Assembly: GCA_038233535.1 (NCBI GenBank)
Contig: JBBSLV010000001.1
Span: 1-40,501 of the forward strand
From: Tepidisphaerales bacterium
GTDB taxonomy: Bacteria; Planctomycetota; Phycisphaerae; Tepidisphaerales; Tepidisphaeraceae
Direction: 5' to 3'
DNA length: 40,501 nt
Position 1 is the stretch's first letter; the number at the start of each line of letters is the position of its first letter. Position numbers and translations under genes: made by a program. The notes under the pieces were generated by a model that saw only the letters and a list, made by a program, of their open reading frames with translations, was not told the DNA's origin and ran no database searches. Of this stretch, positions 1,360-30,862 are shown piece by piece.

Positions 1360-1746
1360 ATGAACGAACGAACCATCCTTGTCGCCGACGACGAAACGCA
1401 CATCCTGCACGTCGTGTCGCTGAAGCTGAAGAACGCGGGGTATCGCGTGCTCACCGCCCGCGACGGGCAGGAAGCGCTGGAGCTGGCGCAGCAGGAGAAG
1501 CCGGACCTGCTTATCACGGATTATCACATGCCGCAGCTCAATGGAATTGAGCTGTGCCGCCGGCTGAAGCTGGATCCGGCGACGTCGCACATCCCGGCCA
1601 TTATGCTGACGGCGCGGGGGTACGAGCTGGAGCCGGCGGATACCGAACAGAGCGGGATCCTGCGGATGCTGAGCAAGCCGTTCAGCCCGCGCCACCTGCT
1701 GTCGACGGTCGAAGAAGTGTTGGCGGGCGCGGGCGCCGCTGCCTAA
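1360..1746 (+). CDS. Single-domain response regulator (CheY-like receiver)
   Basis: 128 aa. N-terminal acidic pair in ILVADDE, phospho-acceptor context LLITDYHMP, conserved KPF near the C-terminus. No output domain. Confidence 0.9.
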   Translation: MNERTILVADDETHILHVVSLKLKNAGYRVLTARDGQEALELAQQEKPDLLITDYHMPQLNGIELCRRLKLDPATSHIPAIMLTARGYELEPADTEQSGILRMLSKPFSPRHLLSTVEEVLAGAGAAA

Positions 1747-1787
1747 GCACAGTTGCATCGCTCGGGGGCTACGCGAGGACGTTTCAG

Positions 1788-3518
1788 ATGTTGAAGTTGA
1801 CGGACAAGCCAGTCGCCGCCGCCGATCCTGCGAAGGACAGCGCTGCCCCCGCGCCCGCGGTGGTCGCCCCGGCGGCGCTGCCGGTCGCGGTGCTGGACAA
1901 CCTCGCCGCCCGGTTCCGTCCCGGGGGGCTGTTCCTGTTGATGCTCCGTCCCGACGGCTCGGTCGCGTATCACGACGCCGGCGGGGGTCTGTTCTTCCAG
2001 CGGTTCGTGCTCCCCATGATCCAATACGCCGACGCCGTCGACCAGGGGCTTCGCCAGAAAGTCGTCGCGCTGGGCGCCGGCGCAACGGTTGAAGCGTGGA
2101 ACGTGCTGCCGGGCGTCACTGTCGCCGCGTTCCCGTACGTCGTGAAGCGCGCCGTGGCCGGCGTGGTGCTCATCGCGGGCAAGAGCGCGTCGTTCCGGTT
2201 GGGCGAGGACGTCGTCCGCGTCTGCTCGCGACTGGGCATCGACGGCATCTGGCTTAACCAGCAGGCCGAGATGCTTTCCACCTACAACGACGAAACCGTC
2301 CTCCGCCAGGCGCGGCTGCTGCACGGCATGATTCGCGACCAGGTGCGGCTCTCCGCTCTCGAGCAGGAGCTTGACAGCCTCTCCGGGCAGTTGGCCAACA
2401 CGTACGAAGAACTGAGCCTGATCTACCAGATCAGCGGCGGAATGAAGATCAACCGCCGGGCCGGCGATTTCTTTAAAGGCGCATGCATCGAAGTCATGGG
2501 CGTGATGAATGTCCGCGGGATGGGCGTGTCGCTCGTCAGCGGGGTGCACCAGTCGGAGCCCGTGCTCTACGGAAGCCTCAGCCTCCCCCCGGGAAAGGTG
2601 CACCGGCTGGCCAGTGAGCTGACGCGCCTGCTCGCCACCAAGAAAAGCCCGCTGCTCATTAACGACCTGCACCGCGACCCGAAGATCTTCGTCTGGCTCG
2701 CCGAATACGCCAAAAGCCTGATCGCCGTCCCGCTCATGCGGCAGGACCAACTGCTGGGCGTGATGTTCGGCATCGACAAGACAACGGGCGGGGAGTTCGA
2801 CTCCGTCGACAGCAAGCTGCTGAACTCGATCGCCAACGAGTCGGCGATTTACCTCGAGAACGCCAACCTGTTCGAGGACGTTCACGGGTTGATGATGGGC
2901 CTCCTGCACAGCCTCACCAGCGCGGTCGATGCCAAGGACGCTTACACCTGCGGCCACTCCGAGCGCGTCGCGCTGCTCAGCCGCCACCTTGCCCAGCACG
3001 CCAGGCTCACCGACCACGAGGTCGAGCGCGTGTACATGGCCGGGTTGCTTCATGACGTGGGCAAGATCGGCGTGCCCGAAGCGGTGTTGCAGAAGACCGG
3101 CAAGCTCACGCCCGAGGAATTCGAGCAGATCAAGAAGCACCCGGAGATCGGCGCCCGCATCCTCCAGGACATCAAGCAGATTCGCGACATCATCCCCGGC
3201 GTGCTGCATCACCACGAGCGCTACGACGGCAAGGGCTACCCCGCGGGGCTTGCCGGCGCGGACATCCCGCTCATGGGGCGGATCATCTGTTTGGCCGACT
3301 GTTTCGACGCGATGACCAGCAGCCGCACGTACCGCAAGGCGCTGCCGCTGGAAGTGGCGCTGGCGGAAATCCGCCGCTGCTCGGGCACGCACTTTGACCC
3401 GCGGATGAGCGAGGCATTCTTGCAGATCAGCGCCGATCAGCTCCGCGAGCTGATCCGCAATCACCAGGAACAAACCAAAAAGCTGGCCGAAATGACCCAG
3501 ACGCTGCGGGCCGCATAA
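1788..3518 (+). CDS. GAF-domain / HD-GYP-domain protein (c-di-GMP phosphodiesterase family)
   Basis: HDVGKIGVP and HHHERYDGKGYPAGL motifs; GAF-like segment ending LIAVPLMRQDQLLGVMFG. Start placed at ATG 1788 (MLKLTDKP) because track start 1554 lies inside the receiver gene in another frame. Confidence 0.85.
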   Translation: MLKLTDKPVAAADPAKDSAAPAPAVVAPAALPVAVLDNLAARFRPGGLFLLMLRPDGSVAYHDAGGGLFFQRFVLPMIQYADAVDQGLRQKVVALGAGATVEAWNVLPGVTVAAFPYVVKRAVAGVVLIAGKSASFRLGEDVVRVCSRLGIDGIWLNQQAEMLSTYNDETVLRQARLLHGMIRDQVRLSALEQELDSLSGQLANTYEELSLIYQISGGMKINRRAGDFFKGACIEVMGVMNVRGMGVSLVSGVHQSEPVLYGSLSLPPGKVHRLASELTRLLATKKSPLLINDLHRDPKIFVWLAEYAKSLIAVPLMRQDQLLGVMFGIDKTTGGEFDSVDSKLLNSIANESAIYLENANLFEDVHGLMMGLLHSLTSAVDAKDAYTCGHSERVALLSRHLAQHARLTDHEVERVYMAGLLHDVGKIGVPEAVLQKTGKLTPEEFEQIKKHPEIGARILQDIKQIRDIIPGVLHHHERYDGKGYPAGLAGADIPLMGRIICLADCFDAMTSSRTYRKALPLEVALAEIRRCSGTHFDPRMSEAFLQISADQLRELIRNHQEQTKKLAEMTQTLRAA

Positions 3519-27797: not shown

Positions 27798-28202
27798 TCA
27801 GGGTGCTCGCAGTTCGGTCATGCGCCGCAGGAGCGGCGCGATCGCAGGGGCCCAGTCGGCCGCTTCGTCCGCCGGCGGGAGATCCCATGGGCTGACGTTG
27901 CCCAGGCGGTCGATCGTGCCGCGGACGATCACCTCCGGCCGGTCGTGCGGCATCTCGAGCAGCAGTCGGTGGACACGAAACTCGATCACCATCTCCCCGT
28001 ACCATGGCGACGATGACGCCGCGATCAGCGTCAGCGCCGGGGGTGGCTCGTTGCTCAGCAGATCCCGGCCGGTCACGTTCCGCATCGCCACCGGCGCGCC
28101 CGCCGCGGCGTGCAGCACCGTCGGCAGGACGTCGGCGTGCCCCGTCGGCTCGTCCACGTCACGCCGGGGGGTGCCCGCATCCACGATGAAGCACGGGACG
28201 CG
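27798..28202 (-). pseudogene. 5'-truncated sulfatase remnant (C-terminal third only)
   Basis: RVPCFIVDAG...GHADVLPTVLHAAAGAPV...GRDLL is the typical sulfatase C-terminal pattern (RVP.IV..PG ... D..PT.L..AG ... G.SL). No CxPxR or N-terminal domain lies upstream. Similarity stops at about 28203, where composition changes. Confidence 0.6.
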
Positions 28203-28212
28203 CGCTTGCGCG

Positions 28213-28713
28213 GTGATTGAGACTTGGCAGGGCCAGACGGTTTCCTTCTTCCGCCGCACCATTTGGCAGCAGCTTGGCAAGATCGTTCGGCTCGCGGAGC
28301 GTGGGGAAGTCTACGCCAGCGGCGTGAAAGACCATGCGACAGCGCTGCACGCGCAGTTCTCACGGGACGCAGCCGGGGCCGACGACTATTTGCCGATCCA
28401 AACGTACCTCGTGCCGACGCAACAGAAGATCAATCCCGTTGCCGCCGCGCTGGACCGCTTGAAGGGCATCTGCAAAAGCAGCGCTGAGTCATACCTCAGA
28501 ACACTTGCCGCCGAGCTTGAGCTAAGCGCCAGCAGCCCTACGCCGACGATCCTCACCGAGCTTGCAGCGCGGATGAACGCGAGCAGCGGGACCATCGCAC
28601 CGAGCGGCAAATTCTTCTCGTGGTTCCGCGACGAGTTCGCATTCACCAGCTTCCCGCAGGCCGAGCCGCCCGCGATCCCCGACTCGTTTATCACCACTAC
28701 CATCATCGCTTAG
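28213..28713 (+). CDS. Hypothetical protein (islet gene 1)
   Basis: High GC3 in this frame by hand inspection. GTG 28213 or ATG 28186 are possible starts. The stop lies 13 nt before the next gene, which has an AGGAG. No motif recognised. Confidence 0.45.
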   Translation: MIETWQGQTVSFFRRTIWQQLGKIVRLAERGEVYASGVKDHATALHAQFSRDAAGADDYLPIQTYLVPTQQKINPVAAALDRLKGICKSSAESYLRTLAAELELSASSPTPTILTELAARMNASSGTIAPSGKFFSWFRDEFAFTSFPQAEPPAIPDSFITTTIIA

Positions 28714-28726
28714 CGCAGGAGCACCA

Positions 28727-29246
28727 ATGCCAGCAGTCGGATTCAGCTTGGACGCGGCTCAGAGAATTGCCGCCGCCGTCCGCAAGGTCGAACGCCAGCC
28801 CATGGACCTCATAGGCGAGCGGACACACGCCGCGCCGAGTGAGGCGTCATGCTGGGGCTATCTCTTGTCAACCATCTTGGCGGGCACACATTGGAGTTGG
28901 CTCAAGCTCGTGCCCGCCGCGAAGCTGCCGAACGCCGAGGAGCCGTTCGCACCGACCGAATCAGAGCGACCGCTTTTCGACTTGGCATCCCCGACATTTT
29001 TCAGTGAGCACACAGCCCGCGAAGCGAACGGCAACGAGGCGATTGAGGCGGCACCGTCGTTCTGCTCACTTCATCGGCTACGACTCTGAGCAGGAGCCGG
29101 TGTACGTATTCCAGTACGGCGTGCCCCAGCCCGATCCGGGGCTAATCAGGCTTCACGACCACCGAGATAACGTCACAGGCCGCGGGTTCGCCTTCGCCTG
29201 CTATCACAGCGGCACCGGACTCCCGCAGCAACCGTGGCACGTCTGA
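28727..29246 (+). CDS. Hypothetical protein (islet gene 2); reading frame switches near 29055-29075
   Basis: ATG 28727 lies 5 nt after AGGAG. Frame A (MPAVGFSLDAAQRIAAAVRKVE...) stops at 29089. A second frame stays coding-like (FIGYDSEQEPVYVFQYGVPQPDPGLIRLHDH...) to 29246. Confidence 0.4.
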
Positions 29247-29278: not shown

Positions 29279-29326
29279 CCCCCGGCGACGTACCTCTCAC
29301 GCTCATGTTCGCCGGGGGTTTTGTTT
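29279..29326 (+). terminator. Hairpin plus T-run between the convergent islet genes
   Basis: cccccggcga (29279-29288) pairs with tcgccggggg (29309-29318) around a 20-nt loop, followed by ttttgttt. Confidence 0.5.
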
Positions 29327-29763
29327 CACGACTTCTTTTCAACGGGATAGACGCGGTGATGAGGATCCCACCAGACCACGAAGAAGGTTGAATCTTCTCG
29401 AAGCCCCCACAGTCGGCGCGTGCCCGACAACCGCAGTGAGAAAAGCTGATCCACATCGTCGAGTTTGATTGCCACGAGTCGATTCTTTGCCTCTTGCGGC
29501 AGGCGGCTGACGCTGATCCAGTGATTCATGCTGGCTTCGCGTTCGATTTCAGCCCAGGTTCGTCGCGAGTTGTCGCGGAGGTATTTTGTCCCTTCGAGGA
29601 ACAGATCATCTTCGTACGATCCATCCTCCTTCTTCCATGCGACCGAATCGAAAAGGGCAAAGTTCCAGATTGGCCGCGCAGTCTGAGCCAGCGCAGGAAC
29701 CAGCACGCGGGGCCGTTTGCGTGTATCGACCTGCTCAGCGATGCGCGGCTGTTTCCTGCCCAT
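29326..29763 (-). CDS. Unknown 145-aa protein translationally coupled to the Panacea-domain gene; candidate toxin (PanT-like)
   Basis: Its start codon overlaps the upstream stop (TGATG at 29761-29765). About 53% GC by hand count on one line. C-terminal LFSLRLSGTRRLWGLREDSTFFVVWWDPHHRVYP. I recognise no family. Confidence 0.6.
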   Translation of the reverse strand: MGRKQPRIAEQVDTRKRPRVLVPALAQTARPIWNFALFDSVAWKKEDGSYEDDLFLEGTKYLRDNSRRTWAEIEREASMNHWISVSRLPQEAKNRLVAIKLDDVDQLFSLRLSGTRRLWGLREDSTFFVVWWDPHHRVYPVEKKS

Positions 29764-30218
29764 CAGACCCCAGCAGCCGCAACGCCGCTGTAATACTCTT
29801 GCATTGAGGGGAGGGTGATTTCGTGGTTGCCCCGATCATCGGGAGCAAGCCCGACGCGAGCCTCTTGCCAAGGGCGTTCAGCGTGCGTGAGTTGGCTTAG
29901 CTCATAGCCTTCTTTGTGGCCGTAGAACTGGATGACCGAGTCGATGGTCTCGCGGGCATCCTGATCGAGGGCGGCAGGATTAGCTCGAAGGGAGCCGGGG
30001 GCGACATCGAACTGACCCCGGCGAGCCTCGTACAACTCGCGCACGACCGGCCCGCCAATCCACGCCTCGATCTTCTCGTGGAAGAGCGCGCGATCATCCC
30101 AAACCAGCGACCAAGCCTGGGCGTAGTAGACCACCTTTTGCAGCTTCATGGCCGACATCGGGCCAAGCCGCTGCAAGATGTAATCCGCCACGTCGAAAGC
30201 TGAGTAGTTCGTGGTCAT
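29763..30218 (-). CDS. Panacea-domain (DUF4065, SocA/GepA/PanA-like) antitoxin candidate
   Basis: ADYILQRLGPMSAMKLQKVVYYAQAWSLVWDDRALFHEKIEAWIGGPVVRELY matches the Panacea/DUF4065 core (KLQKLLYY...W..GPV...VY). ATG 30218 is preceded by GAGAGGAA. Confidence 0.8.
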   Translation of the reverse strand: MTTNYSAFDVADYILQRLGPMSAMKLQKVVYYAQAWSLVWDDRALFHEKIEAWIGGPVVRELYEARRGQFDVAPGSLRANPAALDQDARETIDSVIQFYGHKEGYELSQLTHAERPWQEARVGLAPDDRGNHEITLPSMQEYYSGVAAAGV

Positions 30219-30236
30219 CCGTTCCTCTCGCACCCC

Positions 30237-30267: not shown

Positions 30268-30574
30268 GTCCGAGGAGCAAATCCGGTAATGAGGAAGGCC
30301 GCAGCCGAAGGCCACGGCCCGATTGCCCGCCTGCATCGTCGACGCTCACGCTCGCGGCGCCACGCTCCGGCAGTTCCGGCACCGCCAAACCTTCTGTGTC
30401 TTGCCGCCCATGCCGAGAGCACGTCAGGCGGACGGCACGAGCGGCAAGGCTCCTGCGGGGCGTTCTGAGCGACGAGGCGCGGCGGGAAGGATCATCGCAG
30501 CCCCGGCCAGGCACCGGGCGCGCCAGCGAGGCCAGCGAGCGATGCACAAACTCACTCGGTCTCAGTCGCATTGC

Positions 30575-30650
30575 CCGCAAAGTCAGTCGGTTTGTCCGCA
30601 AAGTCAGTCGGTTTGTCCGCAAAGTCAGTCGGGCGACTGTCCGCAAACTG
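30575..30650. repeat. Tandem 21-bp repeat (ccgcaaagtcagtcggtttgt), about 3.5 copies
   Basis: Copies at 30575-30595 and 30596-30616 are identical. 30617-30637 diverges at its 3' end. A partial copy lies at 30641-30650. The array is about 80 nt from the tRNA 3' end. Confidence 0.88.
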
Positions 30651-30728
30651 CGGCCGAGCGGCGAAAAACGGCACCAAAAACAGACGGCCCTCGCCGGTGA
30701 GGCAAAGGGCCGTAAGTGCTTGAGCAAG

Positions 30729-30802
30729 TGGGCGATAAGGGACTTGAACCCCTGACCTTTCGGGTGTGATCCGAACGCTCTAGCCAACTGAGCTAATCGC
30801 CC
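30729..30802 (-). tRNA. tRNA-Val (anticodon CAC)
   Basis: Hand-folded cloverleaf: acceptor GGGCGAT/ATCGCCC, D-arm GCTC/GAGC, anticodon stem TTCGG/CCGAA with loop AT-CAC-AC, T-arm AGGGG-TTCAAGT-CCCTT, discriminator A. No CCA is encoded. Confidence 0.9.
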
Positions 30803-30815
30803 ATCGAGTCCATCA

Positions 30816-30862
30816 GGTGTGATCCGTGCGCTGTGGCCAACTGAGCTAATCGCCCATCGAGG
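30816..30862 (-). pseudogene. Duplicated 5' half of tRNA-Val (acceptor 5' strand to anticodon loop) plus 7 nt of upstream flank
   Basis: 30816-30862 matches 30763-30809 at 43 of 47 positions (offset 53 nt). The copy ends in the anticodon loop and has no 3' half. Confidence 0.75.

Follow-up and report, generated by a model that had tools for sequence, protein, structure and literature searches.

A Panacea-domain gene and its 145-residue partner form a candidate PanAT toxin–antitoxin cassette in a Tepidisphaerales genome

Panacea-Linked Toxin–Antitoxin Systems

Toxin–antitoxin (TA) systems built on the Panacea domain (DUF4065) pair one type of antitoxin, PanA, with many unrelated toxins, called PanTs. 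In a scan of 20,209 genomes, Kurata et al. (2022, PNAS) predicted 1,268 such PanAT loci, the toxins of which fall into 88 clusters (PMC8832971). Here, we analyze a locus of this kind in 40,501 nucleotides of DNA from a Tepidisphaerales bacterium (Planctomycetota; assembly GCA_038233535.1, contig JBBSLV010000001.1, positions 1 to 40,501). We call this whole stretch the window. The locus spans positions 29326-30218 and consists of a panA gene followed by a gene encoding a 145-amino acid (aa) partner. An original prediction, made by reading the sequence, had proposed the pair as an undescribed toxin or defense module. Its coordinates and features stand as given, with the correction that both genes lie on the minus strand. 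We find that the pair very probably constitutes a PanA-partnered TA-type module. Our overall interpretation, to which we assign a probability of roughly 0.6, is that the pair is a horizontally acquired, autonomous type II PanAT cassette, and that its toxin is a RelE-like endoribonuclease neutralized by PanA.

PanAT loci have recurring properties. The antitoxin gene usually comes first (943 versus 325 loci), and 938 of the predicted toxins carry no CDD domain (PMC8832971). Validated PanTs encompass membrane peptides, a cyclase-like toxin, MazF-like RNases, toxSAS, and Fic/Doc proteins, and PanA proteins form complexes with their diverse cognate toxins (PMC8832971). The most common annotated PanTs are MqsR-like (n = 90). 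The PanA-linked MqsR that was tested is toxic, but it is not rescued by its PanA in Escherichia coli (PMC8832971). Makarova et al. (2009) had linked GepA to YgiU/MqsR, while SMa0917 pairs with Phd (PMC2701414).

The window locus shares the hallmarks of PanAT systems. Specifically, its Panacea/DUF4065 protein has no N-terminal domain and is encoded first, the gap between the two genes lies within 100 nt, the partner is a small “hypothetical” protein, the pairing is kept across many species, and the pair is not part of a longer operon. The locus agrees with all of the in silico criteria of Kurata et al. (PMC8832971). Regarding proximity and conservation, the two frames overlap by 1 nt, and PanA accompanies the partner family in 81 of 83 loci, mostly at distances of −20 to +19 nt. 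Regarding the exclusion of operons longer than three genes, 140 flanking open reading frames (ORFs) contain no family that occurs in more than 4 loci. The difference lies in the partner itself: none of the ten experimentally characterized PanTs resembles it. Since the association of PanA with many unrelated “hypothetical” toxins is the published PanAT concept (PMC8832971), the locus is a further instance of that concept and not a new type of system. On this point, the description of the module as undescribed does not hold.

The partner family may already be one of the 88 unnamed PanAT toxin clusters. Part 1 of Dataset S1 contains T1, a very broad “hypothetical protein” cluster with antitoxin-first (A|T) order, the taxa of which include Chloroflexi, Spiroplasma, Helicobacter, Actinobacteria, Firmicutes, Bacteroidetes, and Fibrobacter (PMC8832971). 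In the same part of the dataset, the T1 member from Clostridium cadaveris is scored “Toxic” (PMC8832971). T1 may correspond to the partner family; the match is an unverified candidate. Cluster look-ups of 20 family members returned no accession among the rows of Dataset S1 part 1.

The panA–Partner Gene Pair

The following features define the cassette:

30218->29763, minus strand: panA, Panacea-domain (DUF4065) antitoxin gene, 151 aa, identified by Pfam PF13274 and PHROG 1281
29763->29326, minus strand: putative toxin gene (panT-like), 145 aa, identified as an ORF with the TGATG overlap and homologous clusters
29765->29761, minus strand: TGATG stop/start overlap, 1 nt, read from the sequence
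30266->30237, minus strand: sigma-70-like promoter candidate, TGAACA-18 nt-TATAAT, with 10/12 consensus matches

The original prediction assigned a DUF4065/Panacea core to the upstream protein, and profile searches bear this out. PanA, which carries the quoted MKLQKVVYYAQAWSLVW...WIGGPVVRELY, matches PF13274 (SocA_Panacea) with E = 2.1e-17 and 64.5 bits (cut-off 25.7), residues 26-118 covering the full profile (1-113), and it matches PHROG 1281 with E = 6.5e-35. Judged by these profiles, PanA is a genuine member of the Panacea-domain proteins. It possesses neither an N-terminal helix-turn-helix nor a PAD1 extension. The identical 151-aa panA gene is called on three independent Logan metagenome contigs. 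A Shine–Dalgarno-like GAGAGG (30229->30224) precedes the panA ATG at 30218. An alternative in-frame GTG exists at 30233 and is unlikely to be the panA start because of its placement relative to the predicted −10 box.

The ATG of the partner gene shares base 29763 with the panA stop codon TGA (29765->29763), exactly the TGATG overlap that had been predicted. Because of this overlap, the two genes are taken to be translationally coupled. The pair also differs in composition from its surroundings. The GC content of the partner gene is 0.566, lower, as had been noted, than that of panA (0.607) and of the window (0.645). At third codon positions (GC3), the values are 0.64 for the partner and 0.72 for panA versus 0.84-0.85 for neighboring housekeeping genes (sialate-esterase-like, glycerate kinase, and ClpB). 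The pair is compositionally foreign, given a GC3 well below that of the flanking genes, and this feature of the sequence supports a horizontal origin of the cassette. The proteins have opposite charges: the isoelectric point (pI) is 5.0 for PanA and 9.7 for the partner. Within the partner, the first 30 residues have a pI of 12.0, in keeping with the basic N-terminus that had been proposed.

The original prediction also credited the pair with its own near-consensus promoter. A sigma-70-like site with 10 of 12 matching positions indeed lies directly upstream of panA, and it is the 1 site found in the region versus 0.4 in shuffled sequences. The site is consistent with a promoter, as a consensus match only.

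A Large Partner Family

The 145-aa partner, which carries the quoted LFSLRLSGTRRLWGLREDSTFFVVWWDPHHRVYP, had been called unrecognized. This description applies to its annotation: searches of Pfam return no match at E<=1 for the partner and none at E<=0.01 for 131 family members, and the PADLOC-DB v2 models match neither PanA nor the partner at E<=1. It does not apply to its relatives, of which there are very many. Specifically, when 1.84 billion cluster representatives are scanned exhaustively with HMMER, homologues appear in 1,833 50%-identity clusters at E<=1e-3 and in 701 at E<=1e-10. Almost all of these homologues are 140-160 aa long and match end to end. With 1,833 homologous clusters, the partner gene is no chance ORF. 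A word-indexed single-protein search had yielded three relatives and the impression of an orphan, which the exhaustive search overturned.

Two library models, neither functionally annotated, are the only ones that detect the partner. One is NCBIfam NF046006, the MAG6450 family, which the window partner matches with E = 1.5e-5 and 25.5 bits, under the curated threshold of 40. Among the 131 family members, 124 match NF046006 at E<=0.01 (best E = 9e-11), the matching region being alpha3-beta3-beta5. Three further members score 20-30.2 bits, so that all four displayed scores lie below 40. The second model is PHROG 8366, which matches residues 60-140 of the partner with E = 3.4e-11. The partner family appears to be a divergent sister branch of the curated MAG6450 family and not the family itself. 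In the literature, MAG6450 occurs just as a conserved hypothetical protein listed in a transposon screen. Named members of the partner family in NCBI, UniRef, and JGI are “hypothetical protein”, except one JGI “DUF4415 family” entry, and none of these members bears a precomputed Pfam domain. Sequence and profile searches of the PDB yielded nothing for the partner, and matches to hemocyanin and NPH1 in the PDB and library searches were judged to be noise.

The partner has three parts: a basic, proline-rich tail (residues 1-30), a strand region with the pattern W33-x-F35-x3-D39-x3-W43, and a core of ~95 aa (~52-145) that terminates in the motif LFSLRLSGTRRLWG...WWDPxHxV[CY]P. In an alignment of 131 sequences, R117, W131, D133, and H136 are invariant, and D39, W70, H81 (96%), A92, R95, L96, W119, G120, P134, and P140 are nearly so. 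In the same alignment, the N-terminal tail follows the pattern K-x-P-x5-P-x3-K-x-P-R, after which comes W33-x-F-x3-D39-x3-W43. Family members of 95-107 aa were considered as a minimal toxin domain and rejected. These short members are mis-called starts, since in one of them (L088) the reading frame continues upstream without interruption as far as the PanA stop codon and encodes the N-terminal motif. Two members of 218-219 aa (P0349 and P0366) are lengthened by an insertion of ~70 residues, placed after the N-terminal W-x-[FI]-x3-D motif and before the core; because of this insertion, the N-terminal strand and the core are possibly separable modules.

Linkage to PanA, Distribution, and Mobility

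Scanning one genome per GTDB species places the partner family at 555 loci in more than 10 phyla. These include Planctomycetota, Acidobacteriota, Cyanobacteriota, Gemmatimonadota (Longimicrobium), Verrucomicrobiota, Thermodesulfobacteriota, Chloroflexota, Actinomycetota, Campylobacterota, and others. The original prediction had called for a survey of whether homologues recur beside DUF4065 genes, and they do. Of the 555 loci, the first 83 fetched were inspected; they come from Planctomycetota, Acidobacteriota, Cyanobacteriota, Gemmatimonadota, Verrucomicrobiota, Desulfobacterota, Chloroflexota, and others. In 81 of them, a PanA gene directly precedes the partner gene in the same orientation; PanA was upstream again in four places found later. 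The PanA-like ORFs at the 81 loci match a three-sequence profile with E values of 1e-23 to 1e-84. All three first-found homologues likewise sit after a Panacea gene. The distance from the PanA stop to the partner start is mostly −20 to +19 nt (76 related loci); the choice of starts is biased to short distances, and gaps measured between profile envelopes agree. Among the four later places, the same pair resides on the conjugative Rhizobium sp. TH2 plasmid pTH2b with a 4-nt overlap, where the Prokaryotic Genome Annotation Pipeline (PGAP) names the two products “antitoxin SocA domain-containing protein” and “hypothetical protein”. It is also present on a phage contig from human feces and in two more metagenome places. 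Linkage of the partner family to PanA is close to obligate.

Two loci are exceptions. One (L064) is a partial match to the C-terminal third of the toxin, with no PanA detected. The other (L059, positions 1740-3432 of an uncultured Acidobacteriaceae metagenome-assembled genome) is a rearranged module. There, the toxin gene (3001-3432, plus strand) is preceded by an unrelated 159-aa ORF (2503-2982, plus strand), and PanA (1740-2228) lies on the opposite strand, ~770 bp off. This arrangement may represent antitoxin replacement or addition.

Across loci L001-L083, the mean pairwise identity is 57% for PanA versus 38% for the toxin. By this comparison, the PanA partners of the family are a well-conserved subgroup. 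The toxin is generally the better-conserved member of classical type II pairs. The pairwise identities of PanA and toxin co-vary (r = 0.52, Mantel p = 0.001), a pattern in the sequences that speaks for co-divergence of the two proteins as a stable pair across many phyla.

The neighbors of the pair vary. The 140 flanking ORFs match 148 Pfam families, none of which occurs in more than 4 loci, and there is no conserved third gene. The commonest flanking families are the S subunit of type I restriction–modification (R-M) systems (4), phage integrase (3), and the insertion sequence (IS) families IS21 and IS1 (2 each). Integrase and R-M neighbors were seen at individual loci as well. Given the near-obligate linkage to PanA and the unrelated flanks, the pair behaves as an autonomous, mobile two-gene cassette.

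Outside the subfamily studied, PanA has other neighbors. The next-closest plasmid-borne PanA homologues, at 38-45% identity, are those of Pseudarthrobacter chlorophenolicus pACHL01 (L093) and of a Bacillus cereus plasmid (L091). Their neighbors are a convergent 154-aa ORF and a hypothetical protein of >480 aa that runs past the fetched stretch, which illustrates partner swapping. On the Lactobacillus gasseri plasmid pHL20_1 (L092, 1441-2437), 4 nt separate PanA from a downstream gene for a 175-aa “hypothetical protein”, WP_035425190.1, which has no NCBIfam match. It matches the family profile with E = 4e-5 (hmmsearch against a tiny database), and hhalign aligns it to the family weakly and colinearly over 83 columns (E = 0.008, 5% probability). 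The His, Arg, and D-x-H-x-x-Y positions of the family are kept. WP_035425190.1 may represent a distant Firmicute branch of this toxin superfamily. Because of this weak, colinear similarity, there are hints that the family belongs to a far larger superfamily of PanA-dedicated toxins that includes Firmicute/Mollicute MAG6450-like proteins.

A Predicted RelE-Like Fold

The AlphaFold2 model of the window partner, built with the family alignment, has a predicted local distance difference test score (pLDDT) of 90.8 and a predicted template-modeling score (pTM) of 0.77. Its elements are a strand (32-34), two helices (54-65 and 70-75), a strand (80-84), a helix (90-98), and a beta-meander (106-113, 116-123, and 126-133). 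A second AlphaFold2 model, made from the core of a different member, has a pLDDT of 90.7 and agrees with the first. Foldseek searches of 350,542 PDB chains with both models return toxins of the RelE/YoeB/HigB/YafQ/ParE type as ~35 and ~28 of the respective top 50 matches. RelE-type matches have template-modeling (TM) scores of 0.45-0.60. Specifically, aRelE 1wmi matches with E = 0.24 and a target-normalized TM of 0.52, HP0894 has a target-normalized TM of 0.60, YafQ reaches 0.49-0.51, and HigB reaches 0.50 with a root-mean-square deviation (rmsd) of 3.9-4.0 A over 88-90 columns. Other top matches are Mycobacterium tuberculosis RelK, YoeB, HP0892, GraT, and ParE. The matches include the ParE structures 5cw7 and 6xrw; ParE has a TM of 0.25-0.35 and an rmsd of >10 A. 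A Foldseek search of viral structures (BFVD) was uninformative. The original prediction had sensed a vague resemblance to RelE/ParE-type beta-sheets, and these sub-significant Foldseek matches, the only structural signal obtained, point the same way.

The likeness to RelE/ParE toxins (RelE, YoeB, HigB, and YafQ, ribosome-dependent mRNA endonucleases) has several components. The core is of similar size (~95 aa), the order of elements is similar, with helices preceding a three-stranded antiparallel meander, and these toxins are the best PDB structural matches of two independent models of the partner. The Arg of the central strand and the C-terminal cluster of Asp, His, and Tyr or Cys are reminiscent of YoeB R65/H83/Y84 and HigB D90/Y91/H92, a comparison that draws in part on weak hhalign alignments. 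Alignments made with hhalign, none of which is significant, each put the LFSLRLSGTRRLWG (LRLSGxRRLWG) hairpin on the beta2-beta3 hairpin of RelE, YoeB, or HigB. In the non-significant alignment to YoeB, R117 falls over Arg65, and the C-terminal His/Tyr are plausibly aligned. These runs compared the family with E. coli YoeB and RelE and Proteus vulgaris HigB, with the RelE sequence confirmed at 99-100% identity, and a RelE alignment of 30 sequences, which is shallow, being drawn from the best 120 relatives, all of them close.

There are also differences. The partner and the RelE/ParE toxins share no detectable sequence or profile similarity, and with TM scores of ~0.5, no Foldseek E value is significant. 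In the partner, an additional helix separates beta2 from beta3, and the protein also carries a further N-terminal strand and a basic tail of 30 residues. It is paired with PanA, whereas the RelE/ParE toxins have RelB, YefM, HigA, or DinJ as antitoxins. Regarding this last point, PanA(GepA)-MqsR/YgiU provides a precedent for the pairing of a Panacea/GepA protein with an RNase from the broader RelE-like superfamily. No family member matches the Pfam MqsR model, and MqsR structures are absent from the top 50 Foldseek matches. The ~95-aa core probably adopts an alpha/beta fold like that of RelE, YoeB, HigB, and YafQ (RelE/ParE superfamily). That the toxin has this fold and acts as a RelE-type RNase is the best-supported reading, unproven and close to an even chance.

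Proposed Mechanism and Alternatives

We infer the following mechanism. One promoter upstream of panA would drive a bicistronic panA-toxin transcript, and TGATG coupling would tie synthesis of the toxin to that of PanA. The notion is that, because of translational coupling through TGATG, the toxin is made only alongside its antitoxin. The acidic PanA would bind the basic toxin directly and neutralize it, by analogy with other PanAT pairs (PMC8832971). Toxin freed from PanA would act as a metal-independent endoribonuclease, probably cleaving mRNA on the ribosome and so arresting translation. The conserved R117, D133, H136, and H81 are its predicted active site, and the basic Lys/Pro-rich tail could aid binding to RNA or the ribosome. 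The cassette may serve to stabilize a mobile islet, to defend against phages in the manner of abortive infection, or both. The conservation of R117, D133, H136, and H81, the charge contrast, and the foreign codons are in line with a type II PanAT whose toxin is probably an RNase.

Several results weigh against this interpretation. In neither Foldseek search does any match reach E<1e-3, the best E values being 0.24 and 1.2. A profile search of the PDB returns no RelE-type chain at E<=10, and no family member matches the Pfam models of RelE, ParE (ParE_toxin PF05016), YoeB, HigB, YafQ, or MqsR. Comparison by hhalign with RelE, YoeB, HigB, and the RelE alignment gives probabilities of 0.06-0.55%, which are not significant. 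The extra helix, the extra N-terminal strand, and the tail of the model have no place in classical RelE toxins. In addition, the window PanA lacks a DNA-binding N-terminal domain, and a search near the panA promoter found no operator-like inverted repeat, so that transcriptional autoregulation would have no evident route. Finally, several PanA-linked toxins are non-toxic or are not rescued in E. coli (PMC8832971).

The sub-significant structural matches and uniformly negative profile tests leave room for a toxin that PanA neutralizes and that is not an mRNA interferase. It could be a ParE-like gyrase poison, a ribosome-independent RNase acting on tRNA or rRNA, or a protein with a new activity or target, and its resemblance to RelE would then merely reflect a generic small alpha/beta fold. 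The ParE structures 5cw7 and 6xrw are among the Foldseek matches, the basic Lys/Pro tail, the W-x-F-x3-D-x3-W strand, and the extra helix are specific to the family, and known PanTs cover many unrelated folds and mechanisms (PMC8832971). However, the Arg, Asp, and His residues that never vary, located on the sheet and in the C-terminal loop, resemble the acid–base site of an RNase and not the protein-binding surface of ParE. Moreover, the best global superpositions are those on HigB, YafQ, and RelE (TM ~0.5), whereas those on ParE are poor by both TM and rmsd. We regard a non-interferase toxin as unlikely. A second proposal, which we also regard as unlikely, is that the partner belongs to an undescribed “WWDPxH” toxin clade with its own H81/R117/D133/H136 site, a Lys/Pro tail that binds the ribosome or RNA, and a target or cleavage specificity unlike that of any characterized RelE-type toxin, working as an abortive-infection cassette. 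Under this proposal, the clade may be among the more widespread PanA partners in Planctomycetota, Acidobacteriota, Cyanobacteriota, Gemmatimonadota, and others.

Two further proposals change the role of PanA. The pair could be a conserved two-gene module that is not a TA system, with a non-toxic partner, for example a nucleic-acid-binding regulator or a phage-sensing protein, modulated by PanA, or the roles of the two proteins could be reversed. The stronger conservation of PanA relative to the partner, atypical for classical TA pairs, suits this idea, as does the finding of Kurata et al. that 8 of 25 PanA-linked candidates are non-toxic in E. coli (PMC8832971). We consider it improbable, given two small genes in antitoxin-first order with overlapping or tightly spaced frames, acidic/basic charge complementarity, patchy spread over more than 10 phyla as well as one plasmid and one phage, and fully variable neighbors with recurrent integrases, IS elements, and R-M genes. 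Alternatively, PanA could function as in type VI SocAB of Caulobacter, as a SocA-style adaptor that passes the partner to a protease such as ClpXP instead of blocking it through stoichiometric binding. SocA bears the same Panacea domain on the antitoxin side, and the window PanA weakly matches the NCBIfam SocA_antitoxin model NF047745 (E = 4.3e-11). Its 42.8 bits, however, fall well short of the 190 required of an equivalog, the partner resembles neither SocB nor any annotated family, and all PanAT pairs tested for complexes formed stable ones and are classed as type II (PMC8832971). We judge an adaptor role highly improbable. The reading we prefer remains a type II PanAT cassette with a RelE-like toxin.

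If that reading is confirmed, a function would be assigned to a large family (at least 1,833 50%-identity clusters and 555 species-level genomes) for which there is no Pfam model, and a RelE-like RNase would join the experimentally thin list of PanA-neutralized toxins. The family is a good system in which to learn how a single antitoxin domain comes to fit toxins of different folds. The hyperpromiscuity of PanA already predicts pairs of this kind, so the concept itself is unchanged. The cassette has value for annotation and as a target for experiments, and it is conceptually unsurprising.

Genomic Surroundings of the Cassette

The cassette sits between a tRNA-Val gene and a sialate-esterase-like gene. 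Two further features mark its surroundings:

29279-29326, plus strand: G+C-rich hairpin then UUUUGUUU, likely intrinsic terminator, judged by folding energy versus shuffles
30728-30802, minus strand: tRNA-Val(CAC), identified by ARAGORN and Rfam RF00005 (66.2 bits)

The original prediction placed the pair in a tRNA-linked islet. The tRNA is there: tRNA-Val(CAC) shares the strand of panA and lies ~510 bp upstream of it, as a possible integration landmark outside the module. Other signs of an integrated element are missing: the islet contains no integrase, and the 3' end of tRNA-Val has no att-type repeat elsewhere in the window. An integrated element with intact att sites was considered and rejected, given the absence of a tRNA 3'-end repeat and of an integrase, together with convergent ORFs that have no matches. 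The “tRNA-linked island” is a remnant at most.

On the 3' side, the hairpin at 29279-29326 abuts and overlaps the toxin stop codon and forms the boundary of the cassette. Its folding energy on the plus strand is −23.4 kcal/mol (z = −2.9 versus shuffles), and the T-run follows on the plus strand only. By these sequence features, it is likely the intrinsic terminator of ORFs that converge on the cassette from the plus strand. There are two such ORFs, at 28174-28713 and 28727-29089, with a GC content of ~0.62. They are called as genes of 175 aa and 120 aa on independent contigs, and neither has a Pfam or PHROG match. The second ORF continues in another frame to 29246, and because of this continuation, a frameshift is possible. 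The two ORFs may belong to the same foreign islet as additional cargo.

On the 5' side, a 49-nt copy of the 5' half of tRNA-Val(CAC), 90% identical, lies directly upstream of the intact gene (30813-30861, minus strand). Starting a few bases ahead of the acceptor stem, it continues through the anticodon loop; neither ARAGORN nor Rfam calls it. This copy may be a tRNA 5'-half remnant, for example, of tandem duplication plus deletion or of old recombination in the anticodon loop. Between the terminator-like hairpin of tRNA-Val (30708->30688) and the panA promoter, positions 30562-30632 hold three tandem copies of a 21-bp unit, TCAGTCGGTTTGTCCGCAAAG. Two of three metagenome contigs with the locus end ~385 bp upstream of panA, ~20 bp downstream of the array, and since these contig ends adjoin it, the 21-bp repeats may break assemblies.

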